Positions 14,255 to 29,885 of a stretch of DNA of 32,000 nt are shown here, piece by piece; position 1 is the stretch's first letter; every line of letters starts with the position of its first letter. A model generated the notes under the pieces. It did not search any database and was not told the origin of the DNA. It saw only the letters and a program-made list of their open reading frames with translations. The stretch is taken from contig CAWAEW010000031.1 in assembly GCA_963781055.1 (NCBI GenBank), positions 16,366 to 48,365 of the forward strand, given 5' to 3'. Origin of the DNA: Terriglobia bacterium. Lineage in GTDB: Bacteria; Acidobacteriota; Terriglobia; Acidiferrales; UBA7541. A program made the translations under genes and the position numbers.

Positions 14255-14602
14255 TCAGGCCAACGCTTTCGCGCGTGGCCGCTTGCGCTTCCATTCGTAG
14301 TCCTTGCGGAGCAGGGCCATGTGTTTCTTGATCTGCGTTTCGATTTCGGAGAAGGCCGCCTTGACGCTTTTGCGGACGTCGGCCCCTTCCCCGGTAGCGT
14401 GCAAAGTTCCGGTCGGAAGCGAAAGATTCAGAGTGAACGAGTAGCTTTCCTTTCGCGGATGCTTCTCGATGTTTCCGTGGAACTGCACCAGATCGGGAGC
14501 GTACCGCGTCAAGAGCTTCTTCAGTTTCACGACGTGCTGTTCGGTTTCCTTTTCAATCGGCTCGCGCCATTCCTCATTTCCATTGCGAATTGCAACTTTC
14601 AT
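14255..14602 (-). CDS. hpf: Ribosome hibernation promoting factor / RaiA family (short form)
   Basis: ATG 14602 has GGAAAGG upstream. MKVAIRNGNEEWREPIEKETEQHVVKLKKLLTRYAPDLVQFHGNIEKHPRKESYSFTLNLSLPTGTLHATGEGADVRKSVKAAFSEIETQIKKH fits the HPF/YfiA beta-alpha-beta-beta-beta-alpha pattern and length. Confidence 0.8.
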   Translation of the reverse strand: MKVAIRNGNEEWREPIEKETEQHVVKLKKLLTRYAPDLVQFHGNIEKHPRKESYSFTLNLSLPTGTLHATGEGADVRKSVKAAFSEIETQIKKHMALLRKDYEWKRKRPRAKALA

Positions 14603-14766
14603 GGGATGACCTTTCCGGGGAAGAATTCGTAGCGGCTTGCAATGGGCGGCACATTTCGTGAATTCATTTGCGATTTCAGAATAGCAATTCCGGAAGGCGG
14701 TTGCAAACGGCAGTTCCAGAGTACTTTCCAAGACCTAGAACAAATCCGCCAAAAAAGAACCCAGAC

Positions 14767-15226
14767 TTATTTCTTGAAGAGATTTTCAAACGCCTGGCGC
14801 GCATCGAGCGGCCGCGAAACTCTTTCCGGGGAAGCCGATTGACTGGTCAGCGGGCGCCGACGGCGCCGTATCCTTCTCGATGGTGGTGCGAAATTCGTAG
14901 AAGGTGCAATCGTTTCGCTGGTCTTTCCGGGCAATGCGCTCGGGCACGGGCTTCATGCACTCGAAACGCGCGGCGGTATCGAAATAGGCGCACTGTTTGC
15001 AGGAGTGCAATTCATACCCGCATTTCGGGCACTTGCCTTTGGGGTCAAAGCCCGGCTGCAGGACGGCCCCGCAATTGGAACAGCGCGCGCGCGTAATGGT
15101 GCCGACCATTCGCGGCGTGCGCGGCCCGATTTGATCTTGTCTCGGATGGCCTTCCGGCGGCCGTCTCTCTTTTTTCTGGGGCTTGTCGGCACTCATGTAG
15201 CCCTGTTGCTTATACTTCCGCTCCAA
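14767..15226 (-). pseudogene. Conserved hypothetical zinc-ribbon protein; +1 frameshift near the 3' end as sequenced
   Basis: TTG 15226 has GGAGG 6 nt upstream. MERKYKQQGYMSADKPQKKE...RCSNCGAVLQPGFDPKGKCPKCGYELHSCKQCAYFDTAARFECMKP contains CxxC pairs. After ...SIGF the next frame gives PERVSRPLDARQAFENLFKK* (stop 14767-14769). Removing one C from CCCC (plus-strand GGGG 14828-14831) joins them. Confidence 0.6.
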
Positions 15227-15366: not shown

Positions 15367-16789
15367 TCAACTGTGTCGGGCCCACAGCCGCGCCAACCCT
15401 TCCGGCTTCAGGTCAGGCTGCAAAAATGTCCGCGGCGTGCCGGCATCGGCCAGAATTGCTTCCGCGGCCAGGTATCCGCTGCGGACCGCCCCTTCCATGG
15501 TCGATGGCCAGCCGGTGGACGGTCCAATCTCCCGCAAGAAACAATTTCGCCACGGGACTTTTCTGCGCGGGACGCCACTGGTCCGAGCCGGGCGCGGGCG
15601 AAAACGTCGCGCTCATTTCCTTGACGACGGTTCCCTTCACCAGGGTGGCCTCGCGCGTTGCGGGAAGCACTCCGCGGAGTTCTCCCAGGCACAGCGCGAT
15701 GATTTCCTGGCGCGAACGCTGGGTCAAACTGTAGGACGCGCTGATCACCAACTGCAGATATTGTCCGCTGTTTTCTCCGCCTTCGCCATATAGCTGCGTC
15801 TTATTGAATACCCACTGCGTCGTGGTATCGACCAGCGTGAGAAACGGCTCGTGCATCACGGTCCGGTCAAACCAGAGATGCACTCCGGTGATCGGAGAGG
15901 CCCGCAATTTTTTCAAATTTGAGAACACCGGCTCGCGCTCGGCCACGTCCGGCGGCAGCAGTTCGGGCAAGACATCTTGCGGCACCGCCGCCAGATAGTA
16001 GTCGGCCGTTTCGACGGAACCATCGTCCCTCAACACGCCTTCGACGCCGCCATTTGCCACGAGAAAACCGCGCACGCCGGCCCGCAAAATCACTTCCCCG
16101 CCCCGCTTTGTAATGGCTTCCTTGCAGCCGTCGTACAAATTGCCGAGCGGCACGCGCGGGATGCCGATGCGATATCCGCGACGTGTCGAAAGAAACGCCT
16201 TCCAGAACACATCGATGCCGTACTGCGCGTCGATGCGGTCCAGCTCTTCATCGAGCGCGCTGACCAGAATGACTTCCCAAAATCGCCGGATCGCGCGATC
16301 GGTCTGCCGGTGTTTCTGAAGCCAGGCCAGCATCGAGATGCCGGTTCCGGCACTGGAAGCGTCCGCCGGACGCCCGCCGCTGCGCGCGATTGCCAGGAGC
16401 GCCCCGGCGATGGCGCGCTTGTCGGCCCAGCCGAGCAACGGAAACTTCAGGAAAGAAGGCGCCATGTGCAAGGGCGCGGGCAGCGCGGCCGCCTTCATCG
16501 AGCCGCGGCGTCCGTCCGGGGCGGCAAAATACAGCCGGTCGAAAAATCGAATCTTGTCCGCCGCGCCGGCCCTTCGGTAGAAATCTTCCAGGTTCGTGCA
16601 GCATCCCAGCGTCACGTGCTGGCAATTGTCCACATGCTCGCCGCCGGGCAACACGTAGGACGCGGCGCGGCCGCCCAAATGGGGCCGCTGTTCGAGCAAA
16701 CGCACGCGGAAGCCGGCTTCAGCCAGCGCGACGCCCGAGGAAAGTCCCGCCAGGCCGCCGCCGATCACGATCACGTTTTTCAAGGACAT
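15367..16789 (-). pseudogene. hpnE: Hydroxysqualene dehydroxylase HpnE (FAD-dependent amine-oxidase/phytoene-desaturase fold); +1 frameshift near the 3' end as sequenced
   Basis: ATG 16789 gives MSLKNVIVIGGGLAGLSSGVALAEAGFRVRLLEQRPHLGGRA (GxGxxG FAD fold). After ...KLFLAGDWTV the ORF degenerates. The next frame reads TGWPSTMEGAVRSGYLAAEAILADAGTPRTFLQPDLKPEGLARLWARHS* (stop 15367-15369). Removing one C at ~15517-15521 restores DWTVTGWPSTMEGAVRSGY. Confidence 0.85.
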
Positions 16790-17702
16790 TATCCCGGGTA
16801 AGCCGCGCGAAGCGCGCGCGGGCAATGAACAGCATTTTTTCCGCTTTACTCAGACGGACGCGCTCGCCGAACACCGCAAAGTCGACCGATTCCATGCGGG
16901 CAAGCAGGGCGCTGTACGTGTGCACCAGGAGCCAGAGCGCGCCGCGGCTGTCCGCGTCCACCAGATCGAATAGTTCAGAGGATTCTTCGTAAATCCGCCA
17001 GGCGCGATCGGCTTCGAAGCGCAGAAGCTCGCGGACACCGAGCGTGGCTTCGTTGCGCGAAAAATCTTCCGGCGAAACGCCGTACCGCGCGAGATCCTCC
17101 TCGGGGATGTAAACGCGGCCGAGGGCGGCATCTTCATGGACATCACGAATGATGTTCGTAAGCTGAAACGCCAGGCCAAGTCTCTCGGCGAGGTCGAGGG
17201 CCCGGGGATCACTATAACCAAAAACATGCGTGCAGGTGAGTCCCACAGTTCCGGCAACGCGGTAGCAATACTCGCGGAGTCGGTCAAAGGTCGCATAGGA
17301 CTTGACGGTGAGGTCCATTTCCGCGCCGGAGATCAAATCATGCAGATAGCGCGCAGGCATGTTGTAGCGGCGCATGGTATCGACCAAAGCCGGCAGGACT
17401 TCCCTTTCACCGCAAAGAGTTTCCCCAGGCAGGGGCTTGGCGGCCGCGCCATCGAAAACCTGGGAACGCCCGGTGACCGCTTCATCAAACGCCGCGCGCC
17501 ACTTGGCGAGTCCGCGCTGTTTGGTTTCGAGATCTTCGCCTTCGTCGGCGACGTCATCGACCAGGCGCATGAAAGCGTAGAGTGCGGCAAGGCCATCGCG
17601 CTTGGATTTCGGGAGCAGATAGAATGCGTAATAGAAATTGCTGCGGGCGGCGCGAGCGATCCGGTGGCAATTCTCGTACGACCGCGCGACCTCGTTCGTC
17701 AT
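16719..17702 (-). CDS. hpnD: Presqualene diphosphate synthase HpnD (squalene/phytoene synthase family)
   Basis: ATG 17702 gives MTNEVARSYENCHRIARAARSNFYYAFYLLPKSKRDGLAALYAFMRLVDDVADEG...YCYRVAGTVGLTCTHVFG...QLTNIIRDVHEDAALGRVYIP, with both Asp-rich motifs. As sequenced, the stop at 16719 overlaps hpnE by 71 nt. An alternative frame ends in TAATG exactly at the hpnE ATG (16789-16791). Confidence 0.85.
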   Translation of the reverse strand: MTNEVARSYENCHRIARAARSNFYYAFYLLPKSKRDGLAALYAFMRLVDDVADEGEDLETKQRGLAKWRAAFDEAVTGRSQVFDGAAAKPLPGETLCGEREVLPALVDTMRRYNMPARYLHDLISGAEMDLTVKSYATFDRLREYCYRVAGTVGLTCTHVFGYSDPRALDLAERLGLAFQLTNIIRDVHEDAALGRVYIPEEDLARYGVSPEDFSRNEATLGVRELLRFEADRAWRIYEESSELFDLVDADSRGALWLLVHTYSALLARMESVDFAVFGERVRLSKAEKMLFIARARFARLTRDNVLEKRDRDRRRPGGTFLGRRAG

Positions 17703-18705
17703 GCCAAGCGGACCCGCGACCGCATGGGAAGGCAGACATCCACCTTCGACAATGGCGGGTCGCAGCGGCGCGGCAGAGGGCGAAGGCGCGGGCGCATGGT
17801 CGCGAACAAACAGGTGTTGAATGAGAGCGCGCGCAAGCAACAGCGCCTGCTTTGATTTTGGAATCGACGGCCGGCGCTGCAGCGTGTTGTAACCGGCGGC
17901 CTCGATGGCGTCCAGCACGGCCAGCCCGCCGCGGCTGAACATCTCGATGTCCACGCGCATTGCGGAATCGATGGTGCGGGCCAGCGGCAGGCCTTGGTCG
18001 AACAATTCGCGCGTGCGTGAAATTAAATCCTTCATCAGCGAAACGTACCGCGCATCGAAGCGGCGCGCGACAATGTCATCTTCCGTGAGGCCGTGCGCCG
18101 CGAGCGTTTCCAGGGGAATATAAATGCGGCCCTTCTCAAGATCGCGGGACACATCCTGCCAAAAATTCGCCAGTTGCAGCGCCGTGCAGGTCGCGTCGGA
18201 AAGTTTCTGCCGCTCGGCATCGCGATACCCGCACAAATACAAGACCAGACGGCCGACCGGATTCGCGGAATAGCGGCAATACTCGAGCACTCCATTCCAG
18301 GTGGCGTAGCGGTGAACGGTCTGGTCCTGGCGAAACGCGACGAGCAGATCCGAGAACGGCTCGATAGGAATATCGCACGCGGCAATGGTGCCGCTGCAGC
18401 GCGATGAACACGGGGTGCGACGCCCGGCCCGCGTAGCAGTCGCGAAGTTCCTGTTCCCACTCACCCAGCAATTCGAGCGCCCTCGCGGGATCGGAAACTT
18501 CGTCTCCCAGATCGTCCGCCCAGCGGCAATAGGAATAGAGATTATAAAAATGCTGGTGGAGGCGTTTGGGAAGCAGCCAGGAAACCACGTTGAAATTTTC
18601 GTAGTGGTGAGTGGCCAGCCAGCGCGTGTAGCGCTCGGCCTCCGCGACCGTGCAGCCGGACGCAGGCGCATTCCGGGCAATTTCGAGTTCAGCAGGATTT
18701 TGCAT
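17699..18705 (-). pseudogene. hpnC: Hydroxysqualene synthase HpnC (squalene/phytoene synthase family); one clear +1 frameshift, and no in-frame stop before hpnD as sequenced
   Basis: ATG 18705 gives MQNPAELEIARNAPASGCTVAEAERYTRWLATHHYENFNVVSWLLPKRLHQHFYNLYSYCRWADDLGDE...HPVFIALQR, then shifts at ~18388-18394 into TIAACDIPIEPFSDLLVAFRQDQTVHRYATWNGVLEYCRYSANPVGRLVLYLCGY...LQLANFWQDVSRDLEKGRIYIP (inside track ORF 16719..18680). That frame runs straight into hpnD. The +1 frame instead ends in an ATGA overlap with the hpnD ATG (17699-17702). Confidence 0.85.
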
Positions 18706-18768: not shown

Positions 18769-19804
18769 CTACGGGATCACCGCGACTTTCATTTCGCCGT
18801 TGCGATGCTTCATGTGCTCGAACATTTTGGGAAGTTCGGTGAGCGGAATTTCGGCGTTCACAAAATCACTCGAACGAATTTCGCCGCGCGACACCGATTC
18901 CAGAGCTTCCCGGATGAACTGCGGCGTGTGATGGAACGTGGACTTGATCGTGATTTCCGAATAGTGGAGCGTGTTCGGGTCCACCGGCACGAGCGTGCCC
19001 CGCGGGCAGCCGCCAAACAGATTGACGGTGCCGCCGCGGCGCACCATCTGCAGCGCCCATTCCCACGTTTGCGAGGTTCCCACCGCCTCAATCACCGAAT
19101 CGGCGCCGCGCCCGTGCTCGGTCAGTTCGCGAACGGTTTTGATCGGGTCGGAAAGATCCGGCGCGATAAAGGCGGCGCGCGCGCCGGCCTTCTCGGCGGC
19201 GCGAACCTGATTCGGTTCTCTTGCCGAGCGCGATCACCTTCACGCCCCGGCCGGACAAAATGCGAATGAATTTCAGGCCGATCGGCCCGCAGCCGATCAC
19301 AATCGTGGTGTCGCCCGGCTGTATGCCGGTCTCGTGAATTCCGCGAAGCACGCAGGCCAGCGGCTCAACCATCGCGGCATCCTGAAAGGAAACGTGTTCC
19401 GGGATCACCAGCATGTTCTGGCGGACGATGCGGCCCGGGATGCGCATGTATTCGGCGTAGGCGCCGTTGTTGAACAGCAAATCCTCGCACAGATTGCTTT
19501 GCCCCTTGCGGCAAAACAGGCAGATGTTGCAGGGCGCCGAATTCGATGGCACCACGCGAGCGCCGACGGCAAGGCCGCCGATCACGTCGGAACCCAGTTG
19601 TTCGACGACGCCGGCAAGTTCGTGCCCGAAGACGGCGGGCGGCGTAATCATTCGCGCGTGGTATCCGCGTTTCCAGACTTTCAGGTCGGTGCCGCACGTC
19701 AGGGCTACCTTGACGCGGAGCAACGCTTCATCCGCCGCGAGTCTGGGGATGTCCACGCTCTCTATTTTGAGATTCTCGCTGCCATAGAGAACCGCAGCGG
19801 TCAT
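18769..19804 (-). pseudogene. Zn-dependent alcohol dehydrogenase (MDR superfamily, threonine/sorbitol-DH-like), ADH-1; +1 frameshift as sequenced
   Basis: N-terminal part (track ORF 19088..19858): MTAAVLYGSENLKIESVDIP...LTCGTDLKVWKRG...GHELAGVVEQLG...SAPCNICLFCRKGQSNLCE (structural Zn Cys4) ...VIGCGPIGLKFIRILSGRGVKVIALGKR. The next frame continues PNQVRAAEKAGARAAFIAPDLSDPIKTVRELTEHGRGADSVIEAVGTSQTWEWALQMVRRGGTVNLFGG...MKVAVIP* (track ORF 18769..19095). Removing one A at ~19216-19217 joins them. An alternative start, ATG 19855, overlaps the ADH-2 stop as TGATG. Confidence 0.85.
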
Positions 19805-19854
19805 GTGACCGTTGCGCCCGCTCTTCTTTTCGCTTCGTAACTCTTCGGTTCGCA

Positions 19855-20958
19855 TCAAGGATGCATCACCACTTTCAAGGAATCTCCTACCGGCCGGGCG
19901 GCCAGTTGCAACGCCCGGTCCATATCTTCCAACGAAAAACGATGTGAGATCAATTCGCGCACCGGCAACTGCCGCGAAAAGATCAGCCGGGCGGATTCCT
20001 CCTGGCGGTCCACCGCGGCGCTATAGCTTCCCAGAATTTCCTTCTCTTCGACGCCCACCGCGGCCGCCGGAAACTCGATCTTCATCTGCGGATCGTTTTG
20101 GGCGAACAGCAGAACGCGCCCTCCGGGCCGGGCCAAGGCCAGGGCATCGGTCAACGCGGAAGGAATCGGCACGGCAACCAGCACGACGTCGGCGCCGCGC
20201 CCTCCGGTCTGTGCACGAATTTCGTCCGCAAGCAGGCCGTCGCGCGGATTCAAAGCCAGATCGGCGCCCAGCGACTCGCTCTTCGCGCGGCGCTCCGGCA
20301 TCGGATCGCTGCCGATAACGGAAGCGCCCCGAAGCTTCGAAAGCATCATCAGGAGCAAGCCAATCGGCCCAAGCCCCATCACCAGGACGGTCTCTCCCGC
20401 TTCCACGCGAGCCTTTTCCACGGCCTTAATGCACGTATTGACGGGCTCGATAAACGTGGCTTCATCGAAGCTGATATTTTCCGGAATGGCCACCATCCCG
20501 CGCTCGGCGACCCACGGCATGGCCCGCACAAACTGCGCAAACCCGCCGCCATTGGGATCGAAGCCCGCCGTCAATCCCACTTTCTTGTAGCCGGGGCATT
20601 GCGAATACAATCGCCGGGCGCAGTAAAAACACGCGCCGCACGGAACGTGATGAAAGCTCATGACGCGGTCGCCCAGCTTCCATTTTGTCACGCCGGCGCC
20701 CACGGCCACCACGGTTCCCGAAACTTCGTGCCCGAAAATTTGAGGGGCGGCCACAAATCCATGCTCGATCTTTTTGATATCGGTGCCGCAAATTCCGCAG
20801 GCCGCCACGCGGATCAGCACTTCCCCATCCGCGATCACCGGCACGGGAACGGTTTCGACGACGACGCGTCCCTTGCCGCGGTACACGGCCGCGCGCATCG
20901 TGGCCGGCACCAGCGGCGGCGTAAACGAAGTTTCGAGTATGGTTCCCCACTGGCTCAT
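19855..20958 (-). CDS. Zn-dependent alcohol dehydrogenase (MDR superfamily), ADH-2
   Basis: ATG 20958 overlaps the hpnG stop as ATGA (20955-20958). MRAAVYRGKGRVVVETVPVP...AACGICGTDIKKIEHG, GHEVSGTVVAVG, HHVPCGACFYCARRLYSQC (structural Zn site), VMGLGPIGLLLMML (Rossmann GxGxxG). The frame is intact. Confidence 0.9.
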   Translation of the reverse strand: MSQWGTILETSFTPPLVPATMRAAVYRGKGRVVVETVPVPVIADGEVLIRVAACGICGTDIKKIEHGFVAAPQIFGHEVSGTVVAVGAGVTKWKLGDRVMSFHHVPCGACFYCARRLYSQCPGYKKVGLTAGFDPNGGGFAQFVRAMPWVAERGMVAIPENISFDEATFIEPVNTCIKAVEKARVEAGETVLVMGLGPIGLLLMMLSKLRGASVIGSDPMPERRAKSESLGADLALNPRDGLLADEIRAQTGGRGADVVLVAVPIPSALTDALALARPGGRVLLFAQNDPQMKIEFPAAAVGVEEKEILGSYSAAVDRQEESARLIFSRQLPVRELISHRFSLEDMDRALQLAARPVGDSLKVVMHP

Positions 20959-21707
20959 CGCACGGCCACCGTATCCTGCTCGATCGGAATGAGTCGATCG
21001 GCAAGGGTTCCCGTAAAAACGTCCAGGAAATTCGAAAGCTGGTTGGATGCCGCCCGGCAATCGCGCGCCAGAGCGAGCAGCGCCGGCAAACCGAACGGGC
21101 GGCGCAACACCTGAGCGACCACTCCGCCCACGCGAATCTGGCCGCGCGCATCGCGCACGCTCTCAAAATCGTATGGCATATCGAACTCGGCGGTGTCGCT
21201 GATCGCGCGCACGGCGAGCGCAGGCACTCCGTAGCGCGCCGCTTCCGCCAGAATCGTGTAACTTTCCATTTCCACGGCTTCCGCCTGGCTTCCCAGCTTG
21301 CGTTTATGTTCCGCGCGGGCCACCAGCGTTCGCGACGTCGCGAAGCGCTCGACTTGGCGCGCGCCGCAATCCACGGCCGTTGAAAGCAACTCGCGATGGC
21401 TGGCTACCGCTACCGGTTCGCCCACTTCACTTACCAGGCGCGCCGCCAGGATGTCCCCCGGACGATATCCGTTTTGCAATGCGCCCGCCAGCCCGGTCGA
21501 TATGCAAATGTCGGGCCTCGACGGAAGCACCTGCCGGATCGCTTCCAGCGCATGGGATTGTCCCATGCCCGTCAGAATAGCGCGGACCCGGGCGCCGCCA
21601 AACTGAGATTCGAAGACAGGCCAGTCCCCCGGCAGGCGGCGAAATTTCCTGCGCCGCTGCCACGGCGAAAATTCCGCCTGGACCGCGAATGTCACCAATA
21701 TATTCAT
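20955..21707 (-). CDS. hpnG: Hopanoid-associated phosphorylase/nucleosidase HpnG (PNP_UDP_1 family)
   Basis: MNILVTFAVQAEF...RVRAILTGMGQSHALEA...ICISTGLAGAL...AEAVEMESYTILAEAARYGVPALAVRAISD is an MTA/SAH-nucleosidase-like fold, located between hpnA and the hpn genes. The start is ATG 21707 or GTG 21719. Confidence 0.8.
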   Translation of the reverse strand: MNILVTFAVQAEFSPWQRRRKFRRLPGDWPVFESQFGGARVRAILTGMGQSHALEAIRQVLPSRPDICISTGLAGALQNGYRPGDILAARLVSEVGEPVAVASHRELLSTAVDCGARQVERFATSRTLVARAEHKRKLGSQAEAVEMESYTILAEAARYGVPALAVRAISDTAEFDMPYDFESVRDARGQIRVGGVVAQVLRRPFGLPALLALARDCRAASNQLSNFLDVFTGTLADRLIPIEQDTVAVR

Positions 21708-21723
21708 GGCCACGGACACTCAA

Positions 21724-22749
21724 CTACGCCGCATGGGCGCGTGCGACAGGTTGCGCCCCCCTGGCAGCGATATACCCGTTCGATTCATACCAACGCGCCG
21801 CGCGTTCCATCGCGGCCTCGATCGGCCCGGGCGCGAAACCAAGCTCCCGCCCGGCCTTGGACGCATCCACAAACATTTTGTGCCGCGCCATGCGCACGCC
21901 TTCCAGCGGAATCCGCGGCTCGCGCCCCAGCATTCGCGACACCGCCGTATCCACGCATCCTGCAGCATATGCCAAAGCGTGGGGAAATTTCCATTGCGGC
22001 GCGCGCCGCCCGGTGATCCCGGCGAGAATGTCGAGCATGCCCTTCAGCGTCAGATTGACGCCTCCGAGGATATACCGCTCGCCGATGCGGCCGCGTTCGG
22101 CGGCGAGCAGGTGTCCCCGCGCGCAATCTTCCACCGGAACAAAGTTCAATCCCGTATCCACGTAGCCCGGCATGCGCCCGTTCATAAAATCGACGATGAT
22201 CTTTCCGGTCGGCGTGGGTTTCCAGTCTCCCGGTCCCACGGGCGTTGTCGGGTTGACGATGACCACCGGCAGCCCCGCTCCCGCCGCGCGCAAGGCGCAT
22301 TCTTCGGCCATGAATTTCGATCGCTTGTAGTGGCCAATCATTTCATCGACCGAAGACTGCGTTGCTTCGTTCGGCAATTCTCCCTTGCGGGGAACGGCCA
22401 CCGTCGCGACGGTGCTCGTATAAACGAACTTTTCAACTCCCGCACGCCGCGCGGCTTCCAGCAGATTCTGCGTGCCGGTCACATTCGATTCGTAAATCTC
22501 TCGCGGGTCGCGCGCCCAAAGCCTGTAATCGGCAGCTACATGATAGATGCGCGTAACACCCGCAAGGGCACGTTCCAGCGACGCGACATCCCGCAAATCC
22601 CCGGTAACGCGCTCTGCCCCGAGCCCTTCGAGAGCGCGAACGTCGCTCGACGGCCTGGCCAGTACGCGGACATCTTCCCCCCGATCAACCAGTTGGCGGG
22701 CAACGTGGCTTCCCAGGAAGCCGGTCGCCCCTGTAACCAGCGTCTTCAT
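21724..22749 (-). CDS. hpnA: Hopanoid-associated NAD-dependent sugar epimerase/dehydratase family protein HpnA
   Basis: MKTLVTGATGFLGSHVARQLVDRGEDVRVLAR (TGxxGxxG), an active-site YxxxK within IGHYKRSKFMAE, 341 aa. The ATG overlaps the hpnH stop as ATGA (22746-22749). Confidence 0.85.
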   Translation of the reverse strand: MKTLVTGATGFLGSHVARQLVDRGEDVRVLARPSSDVRALEGLGAERVTGDLRDVASLERALAGVTRIYHVAADYRLWARDPREIYESNVTGTQNLLEAARRAGVEKFVYTSTVATVAVPRKGELPNEATQSSVDEMIGHYKRSKFMAEECALRAAGAGLPVVIVNPTTPVGPGDWKPTPTGKIIVDFMNGRMPGYVDTGLNFVPVEDCARGHLLAAERGRIGERYILGGVNLTLKGMLDILAGITGRRAPQWKFPHALAYAAGCVDTAVSRMLGREPRIPLEGVRMARHKMFVDASKAGRELGFAPGPIEAAMERAARWYESNGYIAARGAQPVARAHAA

Positions 22750-23886
22750 AGCACTCGTAATCTGCCGTCCGAAGAAACCAGGTCCGGTGTCGACGGCGGT
22801 GGAGGCATCAGCGTGGAACCTCCCCCGGTAGAGCCGCCGGTGGGACTAATGCTTCCGGCTTTTTCAGGATGGCCGCCCATCTTCCCCGAAAGCTGCCATT
22901 TCAGCATGGTCCAGGTATCGCCCAAATTCCGCTTCGCGCCCAGCACCGGCGTGGTTTCAAATCCCACGTGCATCATGCAATCGGCGCAGCGCGGATCATT
23001 TCCCGGCCCGTAATTTTCCCAAGGTGTTTGATTCACCATCTCGCGGTACGATTCATGATGGTTATCGGTGATGACGTAGCAGGGACCTTTCCACCCGCGC
23101 GGGTTATACGTAGGGCGTTCCCCAGGCCGTGCACTCCAGTTCGCGCTCTCCCCGCAAAAAGTCGAGATAAATGGGGGAAACCATCAGGTTGTGTTTATCG
23201 AGCAGGGACACCGCTTCGCGGAATTTTTCGCGAATGTCCGCGCGCGACATGAAAATGTCCGTCGTCTGCACCGCCGCGTAGCCGTACGCCGGCGCGAGCA
23301 TGAATCCATCCACGCCCAGCGTGTCCAGATAGGCGTACAGGTCGGAAATCTCGTTCAGGTCCGTCTCCTTGTAGATCGTGGTGTTCGAGCAGACCAGGAA
23401 TCCGGCGGCCTTGGCGGCCTTGATTCCCTCGATGGCCTCGCGGAACACGCCGTCCCTCTCCACGCAAAGATCGTGCGTCCTCTCCAGCCCATCCAGGTGG
23501 ACGTTGAAGAAGAAGCTGGAGGTCGGCTTGAATTCATGGAGCCGTTTGCGGATAAACATGCCATTGGTGCACAAAATAATGTGGCGCCCGCGGTCCAGAA
23601 TTTCCCGCGTCAGCCTGCCGATTTCCGGATAAATCATGGGTTCGCCGCCGCAAATCGAGACCACCGGCGCTCCGCATTCATCCGAAGCGGCAACGCACTG
23701 CTCGACCGGCATGACTTCGCTGATCGTGGACTTATACTCGCGGATCCTGCCGCATCCGGTGCACGTCAAGTTGCACGAGTGCAACGGCTCCAGCATCAAT
23801 ACCATCGGAAACTTTTGCGCGCCTCGGAAACGTTGCGTGGCCACATATTTTGCGAGGTTCGCGGTCATTTTCAGCGGATATCTCAA
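22746..23886 (-). pseudogene. hpnH: Adenosylhopane synthase HpnH (radical SAM); +1 frameshift as sequenced
   Basis: TTG 23886 has GGAGAG 5 nt upstream. ...FPMVLMLEPLHSCNLTCTGCGRIREY (CxxxCxxC radical-SAM cluster) ...ECTAWGTP then stops. The next frame continues TYNPRGWKGPCYVITDNHHESYREMVNQTPWENYGPGNDPRCADCMMHVGFE... (track ORF 22746..23039). Removing one C from CCC (plus-strand GGG 23113-23115) joins them. Confidence 0.9.
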
Positions 23887-23895
23887 TTCACTCTC

Positions 23896-25905
23896 CTAAG
23901 CCTTCTGCCGCTCGAATTCCTCGGGCCGCAACTGCAACCCGCAGAATTGAGCGGTCCTGTTTGCCGTGTTGCGATACCGCGCGAGCGCGTATAACGGAAA
24001 ATAATTGCGGTACAAATGATATTTCAGATAAAAAACACAAGGAAATCCAGTGCCCGTAAACTCATTCTCCGCCCAGGAACCATTGGCTTCCTGCTGCTCG
24101 ACCAGATGGTTCACCGCCCGAGCGATCGCCGGGTCCTCCGAATCGCCGGCCGCCAGCAATCCAATCAGCCCCCACGCCGTCTGGGAAGCCGTGCTGGCGC
24201 CTTTGCCTTTCAGCGCGGGATCATAGTAAGACGCGATTGATTCTCCAAATCCACCGTCGGGATTTTGCACAGCACGAAGCCATCCGACCGCTCGCTGGCA
24301 GTATTCGCGGGCCGTCAAGGCCACCGTTTCCAGGGCGCGCAGCACTCCACTGGTCCCATAGACGTAATTCACTCCCCAGCGCCCGAACCACGGCCCTTCC
24401 GCAGTTTGATCTTTCAGCAGGAATTGTACCGCACGCCGGATCACCGGATGGCTTGCGGGCCAACCATGACGCCCCAGACATTCCACGACGCGCGCCGTGA
24501 CATCCGCGGTCGAGGGATCGATCATCGCGTTGTGGTCGGCAAACGGAATGTGGCACAGAAAATGCCTGTCGTTATTATGGTCGAAAGCGCCCCAGCCGCC
24601 GTCGCGGTTCTGCATGGCCAGCAGCCATTCGAGGCCGCGCCGCGTCGCGGCTTGCATCCGCGCCTTGTCCGGATAATCCACGCGCTGCAGCGCCATTAAG
24701 ACAAACGCGGTATCGTCGACGTCCGGATAAAAATCGTTGCGAAACTCAAACGCCCAGCCCCCCGGCATCACGCCCGGAGTCTTGACCATCCAGTCGCCCG
24801 ATCCAACAATCTGATTTTCAAGCAGCCAGTCCGCCGCCTCGACCAAGGCCGGATGATCCGGCGGCAAACCCGCTTCCTCCAGCGCCACCATGGCGATGGC
24901 CGTGTCCCAAACCGGCGAAACGCACGGCTGCACGCGGATGGTGTCTCCCTGCTCGATCTCGAATCGCGAGAACTCTCCAATTTCGCGCGCGGTGAGCGGA
25001 TCGTCCGGCGAATGGCCCAGCGCCAGAAGCGCAAAAATGGAGTTCATCATGGCCGGATAAATCGCGGCCAATCCCTCGGTTCGTTCCAGGTGCTCCAGCA
25101 GCCATTCGCGCGCCTGGCGCAGCGCCCGTTGCCGCAAGGGCTTCCAGGGCACGCGTTCATAGAGCTTGAGGCCGCGATCCAGCGCCAGAAAGAAATTCCG
25201 CCAGCTGAAAAGTTGCTTATCCCATTCCAGGCCGAGCGCCTTGCGCGAAGGGTCCCGGTACAATGTTTCCACGGAAATGCCATCCGGCACGTCGAATCGG
25301 GGCTTGTGCGCGTACAGGATCGTCAGGGGAATTACAATTCCGCGCGTCCACGACGACATCTCGTAAATATTGATCGCAAACCAATTCGGGAGGAGCATCA
25401 ATTCGGGCGGCACCGCCGGCACCATGTTCCAGCCGACCGCGCCTACCAGCGCCAGATAAAGCCGCGTGTAGGAATTCGACGCCTCGAGGCCTCCGAGTTC
25501 GTGTACACGAGCGCGGGCGCGAAGCAGATATTCGGATTCCGCCGGATCGCCCGCGAGCCTCAGCGCCACGTACGCTTTGATCGTTGCATTCAGCTCGGAC
25601 GGCCCGCCGAAATAAATGTTCCAGCCCCCATCCTCCAGTTGCCGCCGCCTCACGTAGTTAGCAAGCTTTGCAATCCGGTCGGGCCGCGCCTTGCCGATCA
25701 CGTGCAAATAAAAAATGTAGTCGGATTCAAGGGTTGTGTCGGCTTCGAGTTCGCCGAGCCAGTATCCCTCAGACGCCTGCAGGGAAAGGAGATAATTCGC
25801 ACCGCGATCGATCGCTTCGGAAAGGCGCTCTGCCAAAGCCGGAAAGACACCCGAAGATCGAGCGCCGCCGGACTCTTCAAATTGTACTCGCGTTCCTAAT
25901 GCCAT
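23896..25905 (-). CDS. shc: Squalene-hopene cyclase
   Basis: 669 aa, intact. It has repeated QW motifs, the catalytic DxDD in FYPDVDDTAFVLMAL, GGWGAFD, and the typical C-terminal GTGFPCVFYLKYHLYRNYFPLYAL. Confidence 0.95.
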   Translation of the reverse strand: MALGTRVQFEESGGARSSGVFPALAERLSEAIDRGANYLLSLQASEGYWLGELEADTTLESDYIFYLHVIGKARPDRIAKLANYVRRRQLEDGGWNIYFGGPSELNATIKAYVALRLAGDPAESEYLLRARARVHELGGLEASNSYTRLYLALVGAVGWNMVPAVPPELMLLPNWFAINIYEMSSWTRGIVIPLTILYAHKPRFDVPDGISVETLYRDPSRKALGLEWDKQLFSWRNFFLALDRGLKLYERVPWKPLRQRALRQAREWLLEHLERTEGLAAIYPAMMNSIFALLALGHSPDDPLTAREIGEFSRFEIEQGDTIRVQPCVSPVWDTAIAMVALEEAGLPPDHPALVEAADWLLENQIVGSGDWMVKTPGVMPGGWAFEFRNDFYPDVDDTAFVLMALQRVDYPDKARMQAATRRGLEWLLAMQNRDGGWGAFDHNNDRHFLCHIPFADHNAMIDPSTADVTARVVECLGRHGWPASHPVIRRAVQFLLKDQTAEGPWFGRWGVNYVYGTSGVLRALETVALTAREYCQRAVGWLRAVQNPDGGFGESIASYYDPALKGKGASTASQTAWGLIGLLAAGDSEDPAIARAVNHLVEQQEANGSWAENEFTGTGFPCVFYLKYHLYRNYFPLYALARYRNTANRTAQFCGLQLRPEEFERQKA

Positions 25906-26079: not shown

Positions 26080-26108
26080 ATTATCTTCAGTATTTAAACG
26101 CGGGTCAA
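26080..26108 (-). promoter_or_regulatory. Sigma-70-type promoter candidate for the shc/hopanoid operon
   Basis: The minus strand reads TTGACC (plus 26103-26108), a 17-nt spacer, then GATAAT (plus 26080-26085). It lies in a lower-GC 256-bp gap between the lpxD stop and the shc ATG. The predicted leader is ~165 nt. Confidence 0.4.
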
Positions 26109-26161: not shown

Positions 26162-27196
26162 TTAGCGGCTCTTGGGGCTGCCCGTTTCATTGCCTTTTTC
26201 GAGGTTCCGGATACGTTTGGCAAGTTCCGGCAAACGGCTGAACCAGGCAAATTGCTCCTTGAACTTATCCAAAGGCCGTGCGGGTGTCCCCCAAACGATC
26301 TGCCCGCTGCGAACAATTTTACCTGGCAGGATTCCTGCTTGTCCGCCAATCACGGCGCCGTCTTCGATCTCGCAATGGTCTCCCAAGCCGGCCTGCCCGC
26401 CAAAAGCCACATTACGCCCAATGATGGCCGAACCGGAAATGCCCGTTTGCGCCGCAATCACCGTATTTTCGCCAATGCGCACGTTATGCGCAATGTGAAC
26501 AAGGTTGTCCAATTTTGAACCAGCGCCAATTTCCGTCCGATCGAGCGATCCGCGGTCGATGGTCGTATTCGCCCCGATTTCCACGTCATCATGGATCTCA
26601 ACTTCTCCCACCTGTGGAAATTTCCAGCGTTTCCCGCCGGCTTCGACGTACCCAAACCCGTCCGATCCGATCACTGCGCCGGAATGCAGGATCACGCGGT
26701 TGGCGAGACGCGCCCCTGCGTAGAGCGTCACGCGGGGATACAGCCTGCATTGTTCGCCGATCGTGGCGGCGCGGCCCACGAAACAAAATGCGCCAATTTC
26801 GGTGTTCGCGCCGATTGTCACTCCGTCCTCGATCACCGCGTAAGGCCCCACGGCAACTCCATTCGCAAGCCGTGCCGTGGGCGAAATAACGGCGGTCGGG
26901 TGAATCCCCGCCGCAATCGGAGCCGGAGGCAGGAGCCATTCCGCCGCGCGGGCAAAGGTGAGTTTCGGATTCTCCGAGCGAAGCAGTGTCTTTCCGGCAA
27001 GCGCCAGGCCCTGCGGAATCACGACGCACCGGGCGGCCGAGGCCGCGGCCCGCTCCAGATGCTTGGAAGTCTCCACATAAATCAGGTCCGAGGCGCGTGC
27101 CGAAGCAGGCGCGGCAACGCCGGAGAGTGCCGTCGAGCCGTCGCCTTCCATCGTGCAGCCCAGAAATTGCGCGAGTTCGCTTGCAGTGCGTGTCAT
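26162..27196 (-). CDS. lpxD: UDP-3-O-(3-hydroxyacyl)glucosamine N-acyltransferase LpxD
   Basis: ATG 27196 has GAAGGAGAG 7 nt upstream. The N-terminal [10 protein letters not shown]...[24 protein letters not shown] is followed by long left-handed beta-helix hexapeptide repeats ([14 protein letters not shown]..., [41 protein letters not shown]). Confidence 0.9.
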
Positions 27197-27233
27197 AGCG
27201 CGTCTCTCCTTCATGAAATGCTTTCCAATCGTG

Positions 27234-28190
27234 TCATTTTGGCGACGGATAGGCCTGTGACTCGCCGAGCGGACGGGATTTCCACCGGCGATGCAGCCAA
27301 AGCCATTGATCCGGGTAGCGGCGCACGTAATTTTCGATCACGCGCGTGAACTGCTGCGTATTTTCTAAAATGTCCCTTGCGTCGTCACCCGTGCGAGTCA
27401 GTTTCACAGCAGGCTCAAAGCATAGCCTGTATTTTCGCAACGCCGCGTCCCAATGCAAGAATCCGGGCACGACGGCGGCATCGGTGTGCAGCGCAAACCT
27501 CGCAAGGCCCGCCGTGGTGCAGGCCGGGATGCCGAAAAAATCGACGAATACGCCCTCGGCGTGCAAGGTATTGTGATCGGCCAGAATTCCAACCGTGCCG
27601 CCCTCGGCCAGGACTTTCAACACCGCCCGCGCCGATTGATTTTTTTCGATGGGCAAGTTTCCGCTGAGGCAGCGGTACCGCGTCACGAGCGCATCCACGA
27701 GCGGGTTATCGATGCCGCGCGCCAGGAAATGCAGCGGGTGGCCAAACAGCGCCTGGGCAAACGGTGCGACCTCCCACGCGCTCATGTGGCCGGTGAGAAA
27801 CAGGACCCCTTTGCCGCGCACCTGCGCCGCCGCAAAATTCTCAAAACCGTCCAGAAGAACTATCCGGTCAATATTTTGTTTCGTGTATTTGGGAAAATGG
27901 GCAAATTCCGCCGCCATCCATCCCAACTGCCGCACCATGCCGCGAATAGCCGCGCGACGCTGCTTCTTGTCCCAATCCGGGAAGGCAAGGCGCAAGTTCT
28001 CGTCTGCCGCGCGCCGCAATCCCGGCCGCAGCCACAATAGAAATGCGGCCTTGCCCGCGCCCACAAATCTTGCAATGGGACGCGGCATCGCGCCAAGCGT
28101 CTTGAGCAGCAGCCACGCCACTGCATATTCCGCACGTTCTCGCACCCGGGGATTATACCGGGTGCGGGCTCTGCTTGGTGCCCGCATCAT
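27234..28190 (-). CDS. Lipid A biosynthesis lauroyl/myristoyl-type (LpxL/HtrB family) acyltransferase
   Basis: 318 aa. ...[32 protein letters not shown]..., [11 protein letters not shown] (HX4D/E acyltransferase motif), GILADHN, and the C-terminal [13 protein letters not shown] typical of the family. Confidence 0.8.
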
Positions 28191-28256
28191 AAAAGTGCGG
28201 GGAATACTTTCGCCGCGTTACTGAAAACTCTGCCCGCCAATGCTAGACTCACTCGC

Positions 28257-29885
28257 TTGGATTCTGCCGCCCCAATTCGATCGCGCGCCGCCGAAGAAGG
28301 CAATTTCGAGATTCCCCTTTGGAGCGTGCCACTCATTCTCGTCGTACTCTACGTGTGTTTATTCAGCGGGCTGGGCGCGCTGGGCCTGGTGGGCCCGGAC
28401 GAACCGCGTTACGCCGCGATTGCCCGGGCCATGGCCGAAACGCGCGACTGGGTAACGCCCCGGCTGTGGGGGACGCCTTGGTTCGAGAAGCCGGTGCTGT
28501 ATTACTGGGCCGCCGGAATTTCCATTCGCATTTTTGGCGTAAGCGAATTCGCCGCGCGCCTGCCTTCGGCTCTTGCCGCATTGCTCGCCGTCGTTGCCGT
28601 GGCGTGGACTGCCCTGCGATCGTTCGGCGCGCGCGCTGCGTGGTTCTCTCTGCTGATGCTGCCTACGTCGGTCGCCATGATTGGCTTCTCGCGCGCCGCG
28701 AGCCCCGACATGCTGTTTGCCGGGCTTCTGACCGCCGCAATGGCTGTCGCCGCCGAAATATTGCAGAAACCCCGCCCAGGGCCGATTTTGCGTATCGCAT
28801 TCGGATTTTTCCTCGGCGCTGCCGTGCTTGCAAAAGGCCCCGCCGCCGTGATCCTTGCCGGCGGCGCGACGCTGCTTTGGGCAGCGATTTCGCGCGAGTG
28901 GCGCGCGCCGTTTCGCTTCCTGCACCCTCTAATTATCGTTGTCTTCTGCGCGACATCATTGCCGTGGTACGTCCTGTGTGCGCTGCGCAATCCTGATTTT
29001 CTCCGAGTTTTCATCCTGCAGCATAATTTTGAGCGCTACCTCACTCCCGTCTTCGAGCACCGCCAGCCGTTTTGGTTTTATGTGCCGATCCTGTGCGTGG
29101 CGACCATGCCTTGGATTGTTGCGCTCGTCCGCGCTTTCTATCGGAAATGGAATGGGGAGGGGTGGCGGCATTCTCTATCGCTTTTCGCTTTTTGCTGGGC
29201 CATTTTCCCGCTGCTCTTTTTCAGTTTTTCGCAGTCCAAGCTGCCCGGCTACATCCTTCCAGCGATTCCTCCTCTGTTTCTTTTCATGAGCCGCGCCGTG
29301 GAGCGCCTGTTTGCGTCGAGTAACCGGGGAGCGGCCGTTTTCACTGGAATCACTGGAGCGTTATTTATCGCAGCGGCCATCTTTTCGGAAAAAGCCCTGC
29401 TCCGAACCGGCCATTTTTTCAATATTTCCACTGGCCGTATAATTTTTCTGCTGCTCCTCATCGGGGTTGGCGGATTGATCGCCGCCGGCCTCAGTGTGTG
29501 GAAACGGCCCAGGGCCGCGCTCACTGCGCTCGTTTTGGTCGTCGCTTCAATTTTAGTTTTTCTGAACTTTGGAGTCCTTCCCGCCGCTGACGCACGTATC
29601 TCCGCGCGCCCCGCCGCGCTCGACGCTTTGCGGCTGGACCCTGCCGGCCAAAATATCGCGTTCAGCGACCTCAAAAGAGATTGGCACTACGGGCTGAATT
29701 ATTATTTCGGGCGTGAGTTGCCGGAATGGACTCGCGGCGCGCCGCTGCCGGAATGGTTGTTTACATCGGAGAAAAACGCCAACGAACTCGAGCGGCGGGG
29801 AGACGGCGTCCGCGAAGCGAGCCGCGTGGGCGCGCCGTTCGTCGTCCTGCTTCACATCTCGCTGGACGTCCGGAACTCGCCTTAA
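28257..29885 (+). CDS. ArnT-like glycosyltransferase family 39 (PMT_2) membrane protein
   Basis: GLVGPDEPRYAAIARAMAETRDWVTPRLWGTPWFEKPVLYYWAAGISIRIFGVSEFAARLPSAL is the GT39/ArnT N-terminal signature (DE-x-RYA ... KPPL-like). It is polytopic and hydrophobic, 542 aa. The only in-frame start near the 5' end is TTG 28257, so the start is uncertain. Confidence 0.8.
   Translation: MDSAAPIRSRAAEEGNFEIPLWSVPLILVVLYVCLFSGLGALGLVGPDEPRYAAIARAMAETRDWVTPRLWGTPWFEKPVLYYWAAGISIRIFGVSEFAARLPSALAALLAVVAVAWTALRSFGARAAWFSLLMLPTSVAMIGFSRAASPDMLFAGLLTAAMAVAAEILQKPRPGPILRIAFGFFLGAAVLAKGPAAVILAGGATLLWAAISREWRAPFRFLHPLIIVVFCATSLPWYVLCALRNPDFLRVFILQHNFERYLTPVFEHRQPFWFYVPILCVATMPWIVALVRAFYRKWNGEGWRHSLSLFAFCWAIFPLLFFSFSQSKLPGYILPAIPPLFLFMSRAVERLFASSNRGAAVFTGITGALFIAAAIFSEKALLRTGHFFNISTGRIIFLLLLIGVGGLIAAGLSVWKRPRAALTALVLVVASILVFLNFGVLPAADARISARPAALDALRLDPAGQNIAFSDLKRDWHYGLNYYFGRELPEWTRGAPLPEWLFTSEKNANELERRGDGVREASRVGAPFVVLLHISLDVRNSP

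Follow-up and report, generated by a model that had tools for sequence, protein, structure and literature searches.

A Conserved Pair of Zinc-Dependent Dehydrogenases Linked to the Squalene/Hopanoid Pathway of Acidobacteriota and Its Possible Reactions

Introduction

The hopane biomarkers of the geological record derive from bacteriohopanepolyols, which are major lipids of bacterial membranes; the Acidobacteria rank among the most abundant bacteria in soil. A 32,000-nucleotide stretch from a Terriglobia bacterium (assembly GCA_963781055.1, contig CAWAEW010000031.1, positions 16,366 to 48,365; hereafter the window, to whose own numbering the coordinates refer) carries a hopanoid (hpn) gene cluster in which two zinc-dependent alcohol dehydrogenase (ADH) genes, designated here ADH2 and ADH1, are flanked by an hpnG-like gene and by hpnC, all on the minus strand. 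The source genome belongs to subdivision 2 (Ca. Acidoferrales), the closest genomes being those of Ca. Acidoferrales, which are also labelled gp2. The question raised by this locus is which reaction the two enzymes serve. In a preliminary description of the window, made from the sequence, they were proposed as candidates for a dedicated enzyme that would use NAD(P)H to reduce ribosylhopane, as its open-chain C-35 aldehyde, to bacteriohopanetetrol (BHT).

The proposal is attractive in that papers from 2025 and 2026 still assign no gene to this step, as the preliminary description had supposed, and in a review of August 2026 the conversion is drawn as non-enzymatic. A literature search for an assigned reductase, or for any link between an alcohol dehydrogenase and BHT, returned just one acidobacterial study (Sinninghe Damsté et al. 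2017, Front Microbiol 8:968; PMC5462960). An NADPH-dependent ribosylhopane-reducing activity is on record for extracts of Methylobacterium organophilum (Bodlenner et al. 2015, as cited in a passage of PMC12583986).

The analysis reported here indicates that ADH2 and ADH1 form a genuine and conserved redox pair, as yet uncharacterised, with a link to the squalene/hopanoid pathway. According to the best explanation available, for which the chances appear about even, the two, accessory zinc enzymes of the medium-chain dehydrogenase/reductase (MDR) superfamily, would form a redox module with separate cofactors and act on a squalene or hopanoid intermediate. Two uncharacterised dehydrogenases with very stable hopanoid-operon synteny are concrete and cheap candidates for the open BHT step; at the same time the pair predates its hopanoid linkage and occurs more widely, and it persists in a class for which squalene but no hopanoids are reported, which narrows the expectation of a role in ribosylhopane reduction.

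Identity of the Two Genes

The preliminary description placed the two dehydrogenases outside the known hpn gene set, and in this it was wrong, since both genes and their synteny had been published in 2017, without a proposed function. In the relevant passages of PMC5462960 acidobacterial cluster C consists of hpnA-hpnG-ug1 and cluster A of ug2-hpnC-hpnD-hpnE, where ug2 is a Zn-binding alcohol dehydrogenase of about 350 amino acids and an hpnC-hpnD fusion is the hallmark of subdivision 2 / Acidoferrales. The same passages give ug1 and ug2 no function, suggest HpnA for the ribosylhopane-to-BHT step, and describe ug2 as “somehow associated” with hpnCDE. By position ADH2 is ug1, and by position and as a zinc ADH of about 350 amino acids ADH1 is ug2.

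ADH2 (19855..20958, minus strand) encodes an intact protein of 367 amino acids. Its start lies in the ATGA at 20958-20955 and overlaps the hpnG stop as previously described; gene callers assign the 367-residue length to almost every one of the 120 best homologs, among which the first 20 residues are partly conserved. ADH1 (18769..19858, minus strand) has three start candidates, at 19858 (TTG), 19855 (ATG) and 19803 (ATG), of which the first two overlap the ADH2 stop; the TGATG at 19857-19853, where the start of ADH1 had been suggested, was thus correctly located. The universally conserved Met of ADH1 corresponds to position 19803. It is preceded by the codons for Asn-Gly-His (AAY-GGN-CAY, 19804-19812), which vary at third positions only across about 30 loci, so that translation probably begins upstream of the 344-residue gene models and the start in this lineage probably lies upstream of 19803, consistent with TTG 19858 or ATG 19855. 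The ADH1 stop occupies 18771-18769 and the ATG of hpnC is at 18705, which confirms the gap of exactly 63 nucleotides.

The open reading frames (ORFs) and the Pfam and NCBIfam profiles agree with the initial recognition of two MDR-type zinc dehydrogenases at this place. The Pfam scores are 91.9 bits (ADH_N) and 84.9 bits (ADH_zinc_N) for ADH2, and 77.2 and 70.8 bits for frame-corrected ADH1, against gathering cut-offs of 23.5 and 31.8 bits, respectively. The expected sites could all be located: in ADH2 the catalytic residues C54/H77/E78/E171, the structural cysteines C107/C110/C113/C121 and the Rossmann motif G195-x-G197-x-x-G200, and in ADH1 C37/H61/E62/E147, C92/C95/C98/C106 and G171-x-G173-x-x-G176. 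The zinc ligands, the Cys4 site and the GxGxxG motif show little or no variation among 76 to 82 orthologs, and by domains and motifs both proteins are members of the zinc-dependent MDR superfamily. The term paralogous, used for them earlier, holds at the superfamily level and not beyond, because with a mutual identity of just 30% they are old paralogs at best. Each has conserved motifs of its own, namely “TAGF-P-GGGF” and “GSYSA” in ADH2 and “STFHHTP” in ADH1. An AlphaFold2 model of ADH2, calculated from a shallow alignment of 14 sequences (A1), was poor, with a mean predicted local distance difference test (pLDDT) score of 52.

Synteny within Terriglobia

Two surveys define how constantly the genes stay together. 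In the first, with one genome per species, 80 ADH2 orthologs of 47-88% identity were returned; in the second, a divergent ortholog served as the query for a metagenome scan, which gave 80 loci. ADH2 lies within an hpn cluster in 79 of the 80 species genomes, and hpn genes occur at 69 of the 80 metagenome loci, most of the others being short contigs. Thus within Terriglobia the pair is associated with hpnG, hpnH and shc (squalene-hopene cyclase), as a ribosylhopane reductase should be, and the synteny check proposed in the preliminary description was clearly passed. Nearly always the order in the 79 genomes is shc-hpnH-hpnA-hpnG-ADH2-ADH1-hpnC(D)-hpnE; ADH1 directly follows ADH2 at 78 of 79 species loci and at all 72 metagenome loci that could be evaluated. 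The four-nucleotide overlap of hpnG and ADH2 is kept in close relatives and in Terriglobus roseus. The cluster of T. roseus DSM 18391 is in two parts, with hpnA-hpnG-ADH2 together and ADH1 elsewhere, which agrees with the published clusters C and A.

A ribosylhopane reductase draws support from this arrangement. In the window, its close relatives and T. roseus alike, ADH2 comes directly after hpnG with overlapping codons, and according to passages of PMC5462960 no block is more conserved across subdivisions 1 to 3 than hpnA-hpnG-ug1. Moreover, HpnA, ADH1 and ADH2 are the sole enzymes of an operon with a known end product, BHT, that are without an assigned step, so that by elimination the conversion of ribosylhopane becomes attractive for them. 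The split clusters speak on the other side, since there the NADP-type ADH1 accompanies hpnCDE and not hpnG.

In a separate clade (contig L068, 2235-9596, and contigs L090-L100) the order is ispH-hpnA-ADH2-ADH1-hpnD-shc; genes of the lysine pathway come next, and neither hpnG nor hpnH is close by. HpnA and the two ADHs form in this clade an oxidoreductase trio beside the cyclase. Metagenome-assembled genomes (MAGs) labelled Rugosimonospora (Actinomycetota), Verrucomicrobiia and Dormibacteraeota were also found to carry an Acidoferrales-type hpn cluster of 68-89% identity (contigs L011, L019 and L049 and protein P0010); these are probably mis-binned contigs or mislabelled genomes.

Enzyme Type and Cofactor Signatures

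By sequence both enzymes are of the polyol/threonine-dehydrogenase type within the MDR family, and their third zinc ligand is Glu. Among solved structures the nearest are the whitefly NADP(H) ketose reductase 1E3J, threonine dehydrogenases from archaea, sorbitol dehydrogenase and 4EJ6, a putative dehydrogenase; the identity to 1E3J is roughly 30% in the alignments, and no solved structure is matched with an E-value better than about 1e-40. Human sorbitol dehydrogenase 1PL6 is matched with E = 1e-33 by ADH2 and 1e-26 by ADH1, no better than threonine dehydrogenases or generic ADHs, and “Sorbitol / L-iditol 2-dehydrogenase” is an automated name that the Joint Genome Institute (JGI) applies to homologs. 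The curated NCBIfam equivalogs were all missed, with scores 3- to 6-fold under the cut-offs. The models for L-threonine 3-dehydrogenase (TIGR00692/NF003808; cut-offs 458/380) gave 168.5/158.4 bits for ADH2 and 136.4/125.6 bits for ADH1, that for scyllo-inosose 3-dehydrogenase IolM (NF041097; cut-off 450) gave 162.7 and 149.4 bits, and that for NADPH-dependent aldehyde reductase Ahr (NF047908; cut-off 470) gave 82.7 and 79.4 bits, while the galactitol-1-phosphate dehydrogenase model reached 134 bits against a cut-off of 550.

An acidic residue at the end of the Rossmann strand beta-2 is the classic determinant of specificity for nicotinamide adenine dinucleotide (NAD) over its phosphate (NADP). 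ADH2 has S217-D218-P219 at this place, with S/T-D-P in orthologs and the Asp conserved in nearly all of 82 of them, and ADH1 has G194-K195-R196, with G/A-K/R-R in orthologs. Conservation of these motifs holds among 76 to 82 orthologs and extends to the Vicinamibacteria and Armatimonadota pairs described below, from which ADH2 is predicted to be of the NAD type and ADH1 of the NADP type. An NAD-type and an NADP-type dehydrogenase together are the classic layout for an oxidation followed by a stereoinverting reduction. If the signatures are read correctly, the pair would be a two-step redox module in which ADH2 would be the NAD-linked oxidising and ADH1 the NADPH-linked reducing partner. Their substrate would be a hydroxyl or carbonyl group on an intermediate of the pathway from squalene to bacteriohopanepolyols, and the net chemistry could be a reduction, a stereoinversion or an aldose-to-polyol-to-ketose conversion.

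A hint as to the substrates handled by this subfamily comes from P0257, a protein of 602 amino acids in which a sugar-1-phosphate nucleotidylyltransferase is fused to an ADH2-like domain (39% identity, motifs TTAGY..GGGFAEY and GSYSS), and which would suit sugars or alditols. It was the one informative fusion among the long homologs, where an HpnG-ADH fusion was not found. The 667-residue double-MDR protein P0335, considered as a possible ADH-ADH fusion, was rejected as an internally duplicated sorbitol-dehydrogenase-like protein with 27-30% identity to either ADH.

For the reduction of ribosylhopane these features cut both ways. The NADP-type motif of ADH1 would fit, and polyol- or sugar-type MDR chemistry, including that suggested by the nucleotidylyltransferase-fused relative, suits the ribose-derived head group. 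The usual substrates of the polyol-type branch are secondary alcohols and ketones, not aldose aldehydes, and the scores of about 80 bits with the Ahr model fall far below its cut-off.

Distribution outside Terriglobia

Representatives beyond Acidobacteriota share 42-48% identity. In an Armatimonadota MAG (GCA_028871815.1; contig L170, 8946-16323) the order is aminotransferase-ADH2-ADH1-(89-residue ORF)-hpnC-hpnD-hpnE, the aminotransferase being threonine-aldolase-like (Beta_elim_lyase), and none of shc, hpnH, hpnG or hpnA was found within 10 kb. A low-GC contig (L175, 2000-6304) carries ADH2-ADH1-hpnC-hpnD with a convergent hpnH fragment, and two among its three junctions, ADH2/ADH1 and ADH1/hpnC, are four-nucleotide overlaps. 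A cyanobacterial homolog (L172) was not taken as an ortholog of the pair, being a single gene with no partner. Linkage to hpn genes thus recurs in Acidobacteriaceae, in Acidoferrales, in the ispH-hpnA-ADH2-ADH1-hpnD-shc clade, in the Armatimonadota MAG and in the low-GC contig. In both hpn-linked loci examined outside Acidobacteriota the pair abuts hpnC/hpnD and not hpnG, and the most constant neighbour across distant lineages is likewise hpnC/hpnD, not hpnG.

This deeper linkage, without hpnG beside the pair in those loci, counts against a reductase acting after HpnG, and it speaks for a role at the squalene stage instead of on the C35 side chain. Here the pair would act together with HpnC, HpnD and HpnE, for instance by oxidising and re-reducing, and so stereo-inverting or recycling, a side product or the secondary alcohol hydroxysqualene. 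In all linked lineages, Armatimonadota and L175 included, the gene just downstream of ADH1 is hpnC or hpnD, save for the small ORF in Armatimonadota; the authors of the 2017 study tie ug2 to hpnCDE (PMC5462960), and an NAD-type plus NADP-type layout suits an oxidation followed by a stereoinverting reduction. Nevertheless, a squalene-stage alcohol such as hydroxysqualene is considered an unlikely substrate. The three-enzyme route of HpnD, HpnC and HpnE is reported, by papers that cite the original work, to be sufficient for squalene formation in E. coli, so that no further step is known to be needed; and in sequence the two proteins stand near polyol, threonine and sugar enzymes and not near any known alcohol dehydrogenase of terpenoids.

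Several observations weigh against the explanation of the pair as a squalene/hopanoid module. The sole species genome among the 80 in which ADH2 is unlinked is a Vicinamibacteria MAG, and with three further places of the Vicinamibacteria type it makes four (contigs L069, L088 and L089 and the contig of protein P0221) at which no hpn gene lies within about 7-10 kb. A block queF-Pro_dh-ADH2-ADH1 is contiguous in L069 (8727-12125), in L089 (7414-10725) and in the P0221 contig, and in L088 (2578-9521) three other genes stand between Pro_dh and ADH2. Passages of PMC5462960 report this class as free of hopanoids and of shc, hpnH and hpnG, subdivision 6 making no hopanoids and having hpnCDE. The Vicinamibacteria pair has 53% (ADH2) and 50% (ADH1) identity to that of the window, as compared with about 30% between the paralogs, and keeps the active-site motifs and the cofactor signatures. 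Conservation in Terriglobia reaches at least 90% at 126 positions of ADH2; at 91 of these the same residue is conserved in 120 Vicinamibacteria sequences, and just 3 are conserved but different, so the tandem is under apparent purifying selection in Vicinamibacteria too. Farther away, three distant tandems, on a TARA marine contig and two other contigs, are without hpn context, and ADH1 of L175 has Glu, an acidic and NAD-like residue, where acidobacterial ADH1 has G-K-R, because of which the separate-cofactor pattern is not universal. The cofactor types themselves are predictions from motifs, and it is from the spacing of same-direction genes that we infer the membership of both ADHs in the hpn operon; their junctions with the operon neighbours are overlapping or very short, and a scan of the operon region found terminator-like sites no commoner than in shuffled sequences, by which a single transcript is neither proven nor disproven. 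In favour of the module, a rough neighbour-joining tree that has no support values places the unlinked clade of Vicinamibacteria within a set of linked ones. This suggests an old linkage to the squalene/hopanoid cluster, which Vicinamibacteria lost while they retained the pair.

Vicinamibacteria bear on the squalene stage in two ways. They keep the pair and are reported with hpnCDE but without shc (PMC5462960), which favours this stage; on the other hand, in all four Vicinamibacteria places the pair is not beside hpnCDE. According to the same source C. thermophilum has hpnCDE and not ug2, which also speaks against this stage.

The unlinked tandems give substance to another possibility, that the two enzymes are a general sugar or polyol redox pair for pentoses or 5-deoxypentoses, such as 5-deoxyribose derived from radical S-adenosylmethionine reactions, with no hopanoid or squalene substrate, their location in the operon being inherited gene order or loose physiological coupling. 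Tandems outside hpn context in Vicinamibacteria, on the TARA contig and on the two other contigs agree with it, as do the likeness of active-site positions between linked and unlinked clades, the polyol-dehydrogenase-type features, the nucleotidylyltransferase-fused relative and the generic automated names that are all the sources give. Against it, linkage to hpn genes persists down to about 45% identity, through several rearranged layouts and at least 2 phyla and often with stop/start overlaps, and for this reason inertia alone is hard to credit; besides, no sugar transporter, kinase or isomerase stands alongside the pair in any context seen. Such a general pair is regarded as rather improbable, and the explanation preferred here remains the accessory module of the squalene/hopanoid pathway.

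Within this module reading, the ribose-derived C35 side chain as substrate, taken over all reactions that it might undergo, is a tentative possibility, of which the reduction of ribosylhopane forms one part. The hpn clusters of Rhodopseudomonas, Zymomonas and Burkholderia are not known to contain an alcohol dehydrogenase, and an alphaproteobacterial hpn survey makes no mention of one, which counts against a dedicated reductase. In passages of PMC5462960 C. thermophilum is without ug2 and yet has all the BHT cyclitol ether genes and is a reported maker of BHT derivatives; the retention of the pair and its active site in Vicinamibacteria, reported to be without shc, hpnH and hpnG, points in the same direction. 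The phyletic pattern therefore does not track the C35 hopanoid producers, given the Vicinamibacteria tandems, C. thermophilum without ug2 and the Armatimonadota locus with hpnCDE only. Owing to this pattern, to the enzyme subtype and to the deeper linkage with hpnC/hpnD, the assignment of one or both ADHs as the dedicated ribosylhopane reductase, which the Terriglobia synteny had favoured, is now considered unlikely. Equally doubtful is a more specific scenario drawn from the sequences, in which in Terriglobia ADH1 would be the NADPH-dependent ribosylhopane reductase and ADH2 its NAD partner that edits the oxidation state or stereochemistry of the side chain, for example at C-34, both having been recruited from an older (5-deoxy)pentose pair that Vicinamibacteria kept.

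Operon Layout in the Window

According to ORFs and NCBIfam/Pfam profiles the minus-strand gene order of the window is shc-hpnH-hpnA-hpnG-ADH2-ADH1-hpnCD-hpnE, tightly packed, and shc, hpnH, hpnA, hpnC, hpnD and hpnE all score above the curated NCBIfam cut-offs. The first gene is shc (23896..25905; TIGR01507, 788.7 bits against a cut-off of 431). Upstream of it a promoter-like TTGACC-17-GATAAT (26080..26108, minus strand) was the best consensus match of the region in a promoter scan, with 10 of 12 positions, and is on this consensus match a candidate operon promoter. Then follow hpnH for adenosylhopane synthase (22746..23886; TIGR03470, 322 bits on a part of 260 residues, a second part of 97 residues matching the C-terminus) and hpnA for the hopanoid-associated short-chain dehydrogenase/reductase (SDR) “sugar epimerase” (21724..22749; TIGR03466, 476.7 bits against 367.7).

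The next gene (20955..21719) belongs to the purine nucleoside phosphorylase (PNP)/nucleosidase family. Its earlier naming as hpnG holds as far as its best match is HpnG (TIGR03468) and its position is that of hpnG in the published acidobacterial clusters (PMC5462960, passages on gene order), but its 122.5 bits stay below the curated cut-off of 187.1, so that it is better described as a divergent, hpnG-like member. Across Acidobacteria this protein has just 25-50% identity even where the flanking genes reach 50-70%, which makes it the fastest-evolving gene of the operon. Beyond ADH2 and ADH1 an hpnC-hpnD fusion (16719..18705; TIGR03464 and TIGR03465 on one ORF) and hpnE for hydroxysqualene dehydroxylase (15367..16825, the lower end being approximate; TIGR03467, 396 bits) complete the series on the same strand. 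The intact fusion measures 660 amino acids in the relative L001.

Directly upstream of shc, both in the window (26162-29885) and in L001 (1056-4782), stand lpxD, a lipid A acyltransferase gene and a PMT_2/ArnT-like glycosyltransferase gene, by which outer-membrane lipid genes adjoin the hopanoid operon. Downstream of hpnE, on the minus strand at 14255-14731 and 14786-15226, there are a ribosome-hibernation-factor-like gene and a small Cys-rich ORF; the latter adjoins hpnE in L001 too, and its tblastn matches fall in two frames of the window, which may indicate another insertion or deletion.

Frame Disruptions

Recognition of ADH1 as a zinc-dependent dehydrogenase gene stands by its domains, whereas its description as an intact gene does not, since a single-base insertion at 19213..19217 (minus strand), just after the G-K-R motif, had been overlooked. 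Alignments show one extra base in the window against each of L001, L003, L053, L083 and L086. As read, ADH1 is interrupted and consists of a 256-residue ORF (19858-19088), the product of which ends in an out-of-frame tail of 45 residues, and of a separate 108-residue ORF (19095-18769).

Taken at face value, the truncated product and the separate ORF would make ADH1 a genuine pseudogene in a decaying operon, and the frameshifts of hpnH (insertion near 23112-23115, relative to L001, L003 and L053), hpnC (near 18390-18395) and hpnE (near 15519-15522, the C-terminus sitting in another frame) could be quoted in support. Yet all four lesions of the hpn operon are single-base insertions as compared with relatives, and they are part of at least 6 frame disruptions in 32 kb (~1360-1440, ~5880-5900, ~15519-15522, ~18390-18395, ~19213-19217 and ~23112-23115), which also affect the unrelated genes of RtcB (~5.9 kb) and a Lon-like protease (~1.4 kb), seen simply as genes split between frames. 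No further signs of decay accompany them, identity to relatives being 83-93% on both sides of each lesion. The 96%-identical contig L083 has neither the ADH1 nor the hpnC insertion, and its ADH1 protein is intact; among the 120 best ADH1 homologs every one is intact (335-381 amino acids), and long-read-style MAGs of the survey (L009, L080) are similarly fragmented. Because so many disruptions, four of them single-base insertions, occur in otherwise well-conserved genes, the ADH1 frameshift is probably an assembly error of the kind met in long-read assemblies, and a true pseudogene is very improbable.

Comparison with Known Systems

With ug1 and ug2 of the acidobacterial clusters the present genes agree in that ug1 follows hpnA-hpnG and ug2 precedes hpnC-hpnD-hpnE, with fused hpnCD in subdivision 2. 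The protein type of ug1 is not described in the relevant passages of PMC5462960, and as compared with these the tandem of Vicinamibacteria and of other phyla and the NAD-type versus NADP-type signatures are additions of the present analysis. The activity in M. organophilum extracts, as given in the passage of PMC12583986, would be the same reaction if the proposal of a ribosylhopane reductase were right, and the NADP-type signature of ADH1 would fit it; that activity has no gene attached.

With the polyol/threonine branch of the MDR family (1PL6, 1E3J, the threonine dehydrogenases 2D8A/2DFV and the galactitol-1-phosphate 5-dehydrogenase 4A2C) both proteins share the ADH_N and ADH_zinc_N domains, the Cys/His/Glu zinc ligands with Glu in an “EP” motif, the structural Cys4 lobe and the GxGxxG Rossmann motif. 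The NADP-specific A-R-S of ketose reductase 1E3J aligns with G-K-R of ADH1. The two differ from this branch in the low identity to 1E3J, in the scores below the cut-offs and in the conserved motifs that are their own.

As a two-cofactor arrangement the pair may be compared with fungal xylose reductase/xylitol dehydrogenase and with Bacillus IolG/IolW in inositol epimerisation. The partners in those relays come from other families (aldo-keto reductases and Gfo/Idh/MocA), and the likeness is one of motifs only: in each case an NAD-type and an NADP-type dehydrogenase would be encoded together, and in NAD+/NADPH polyol relays this layout drives a one-way oxidation followed by reduction.

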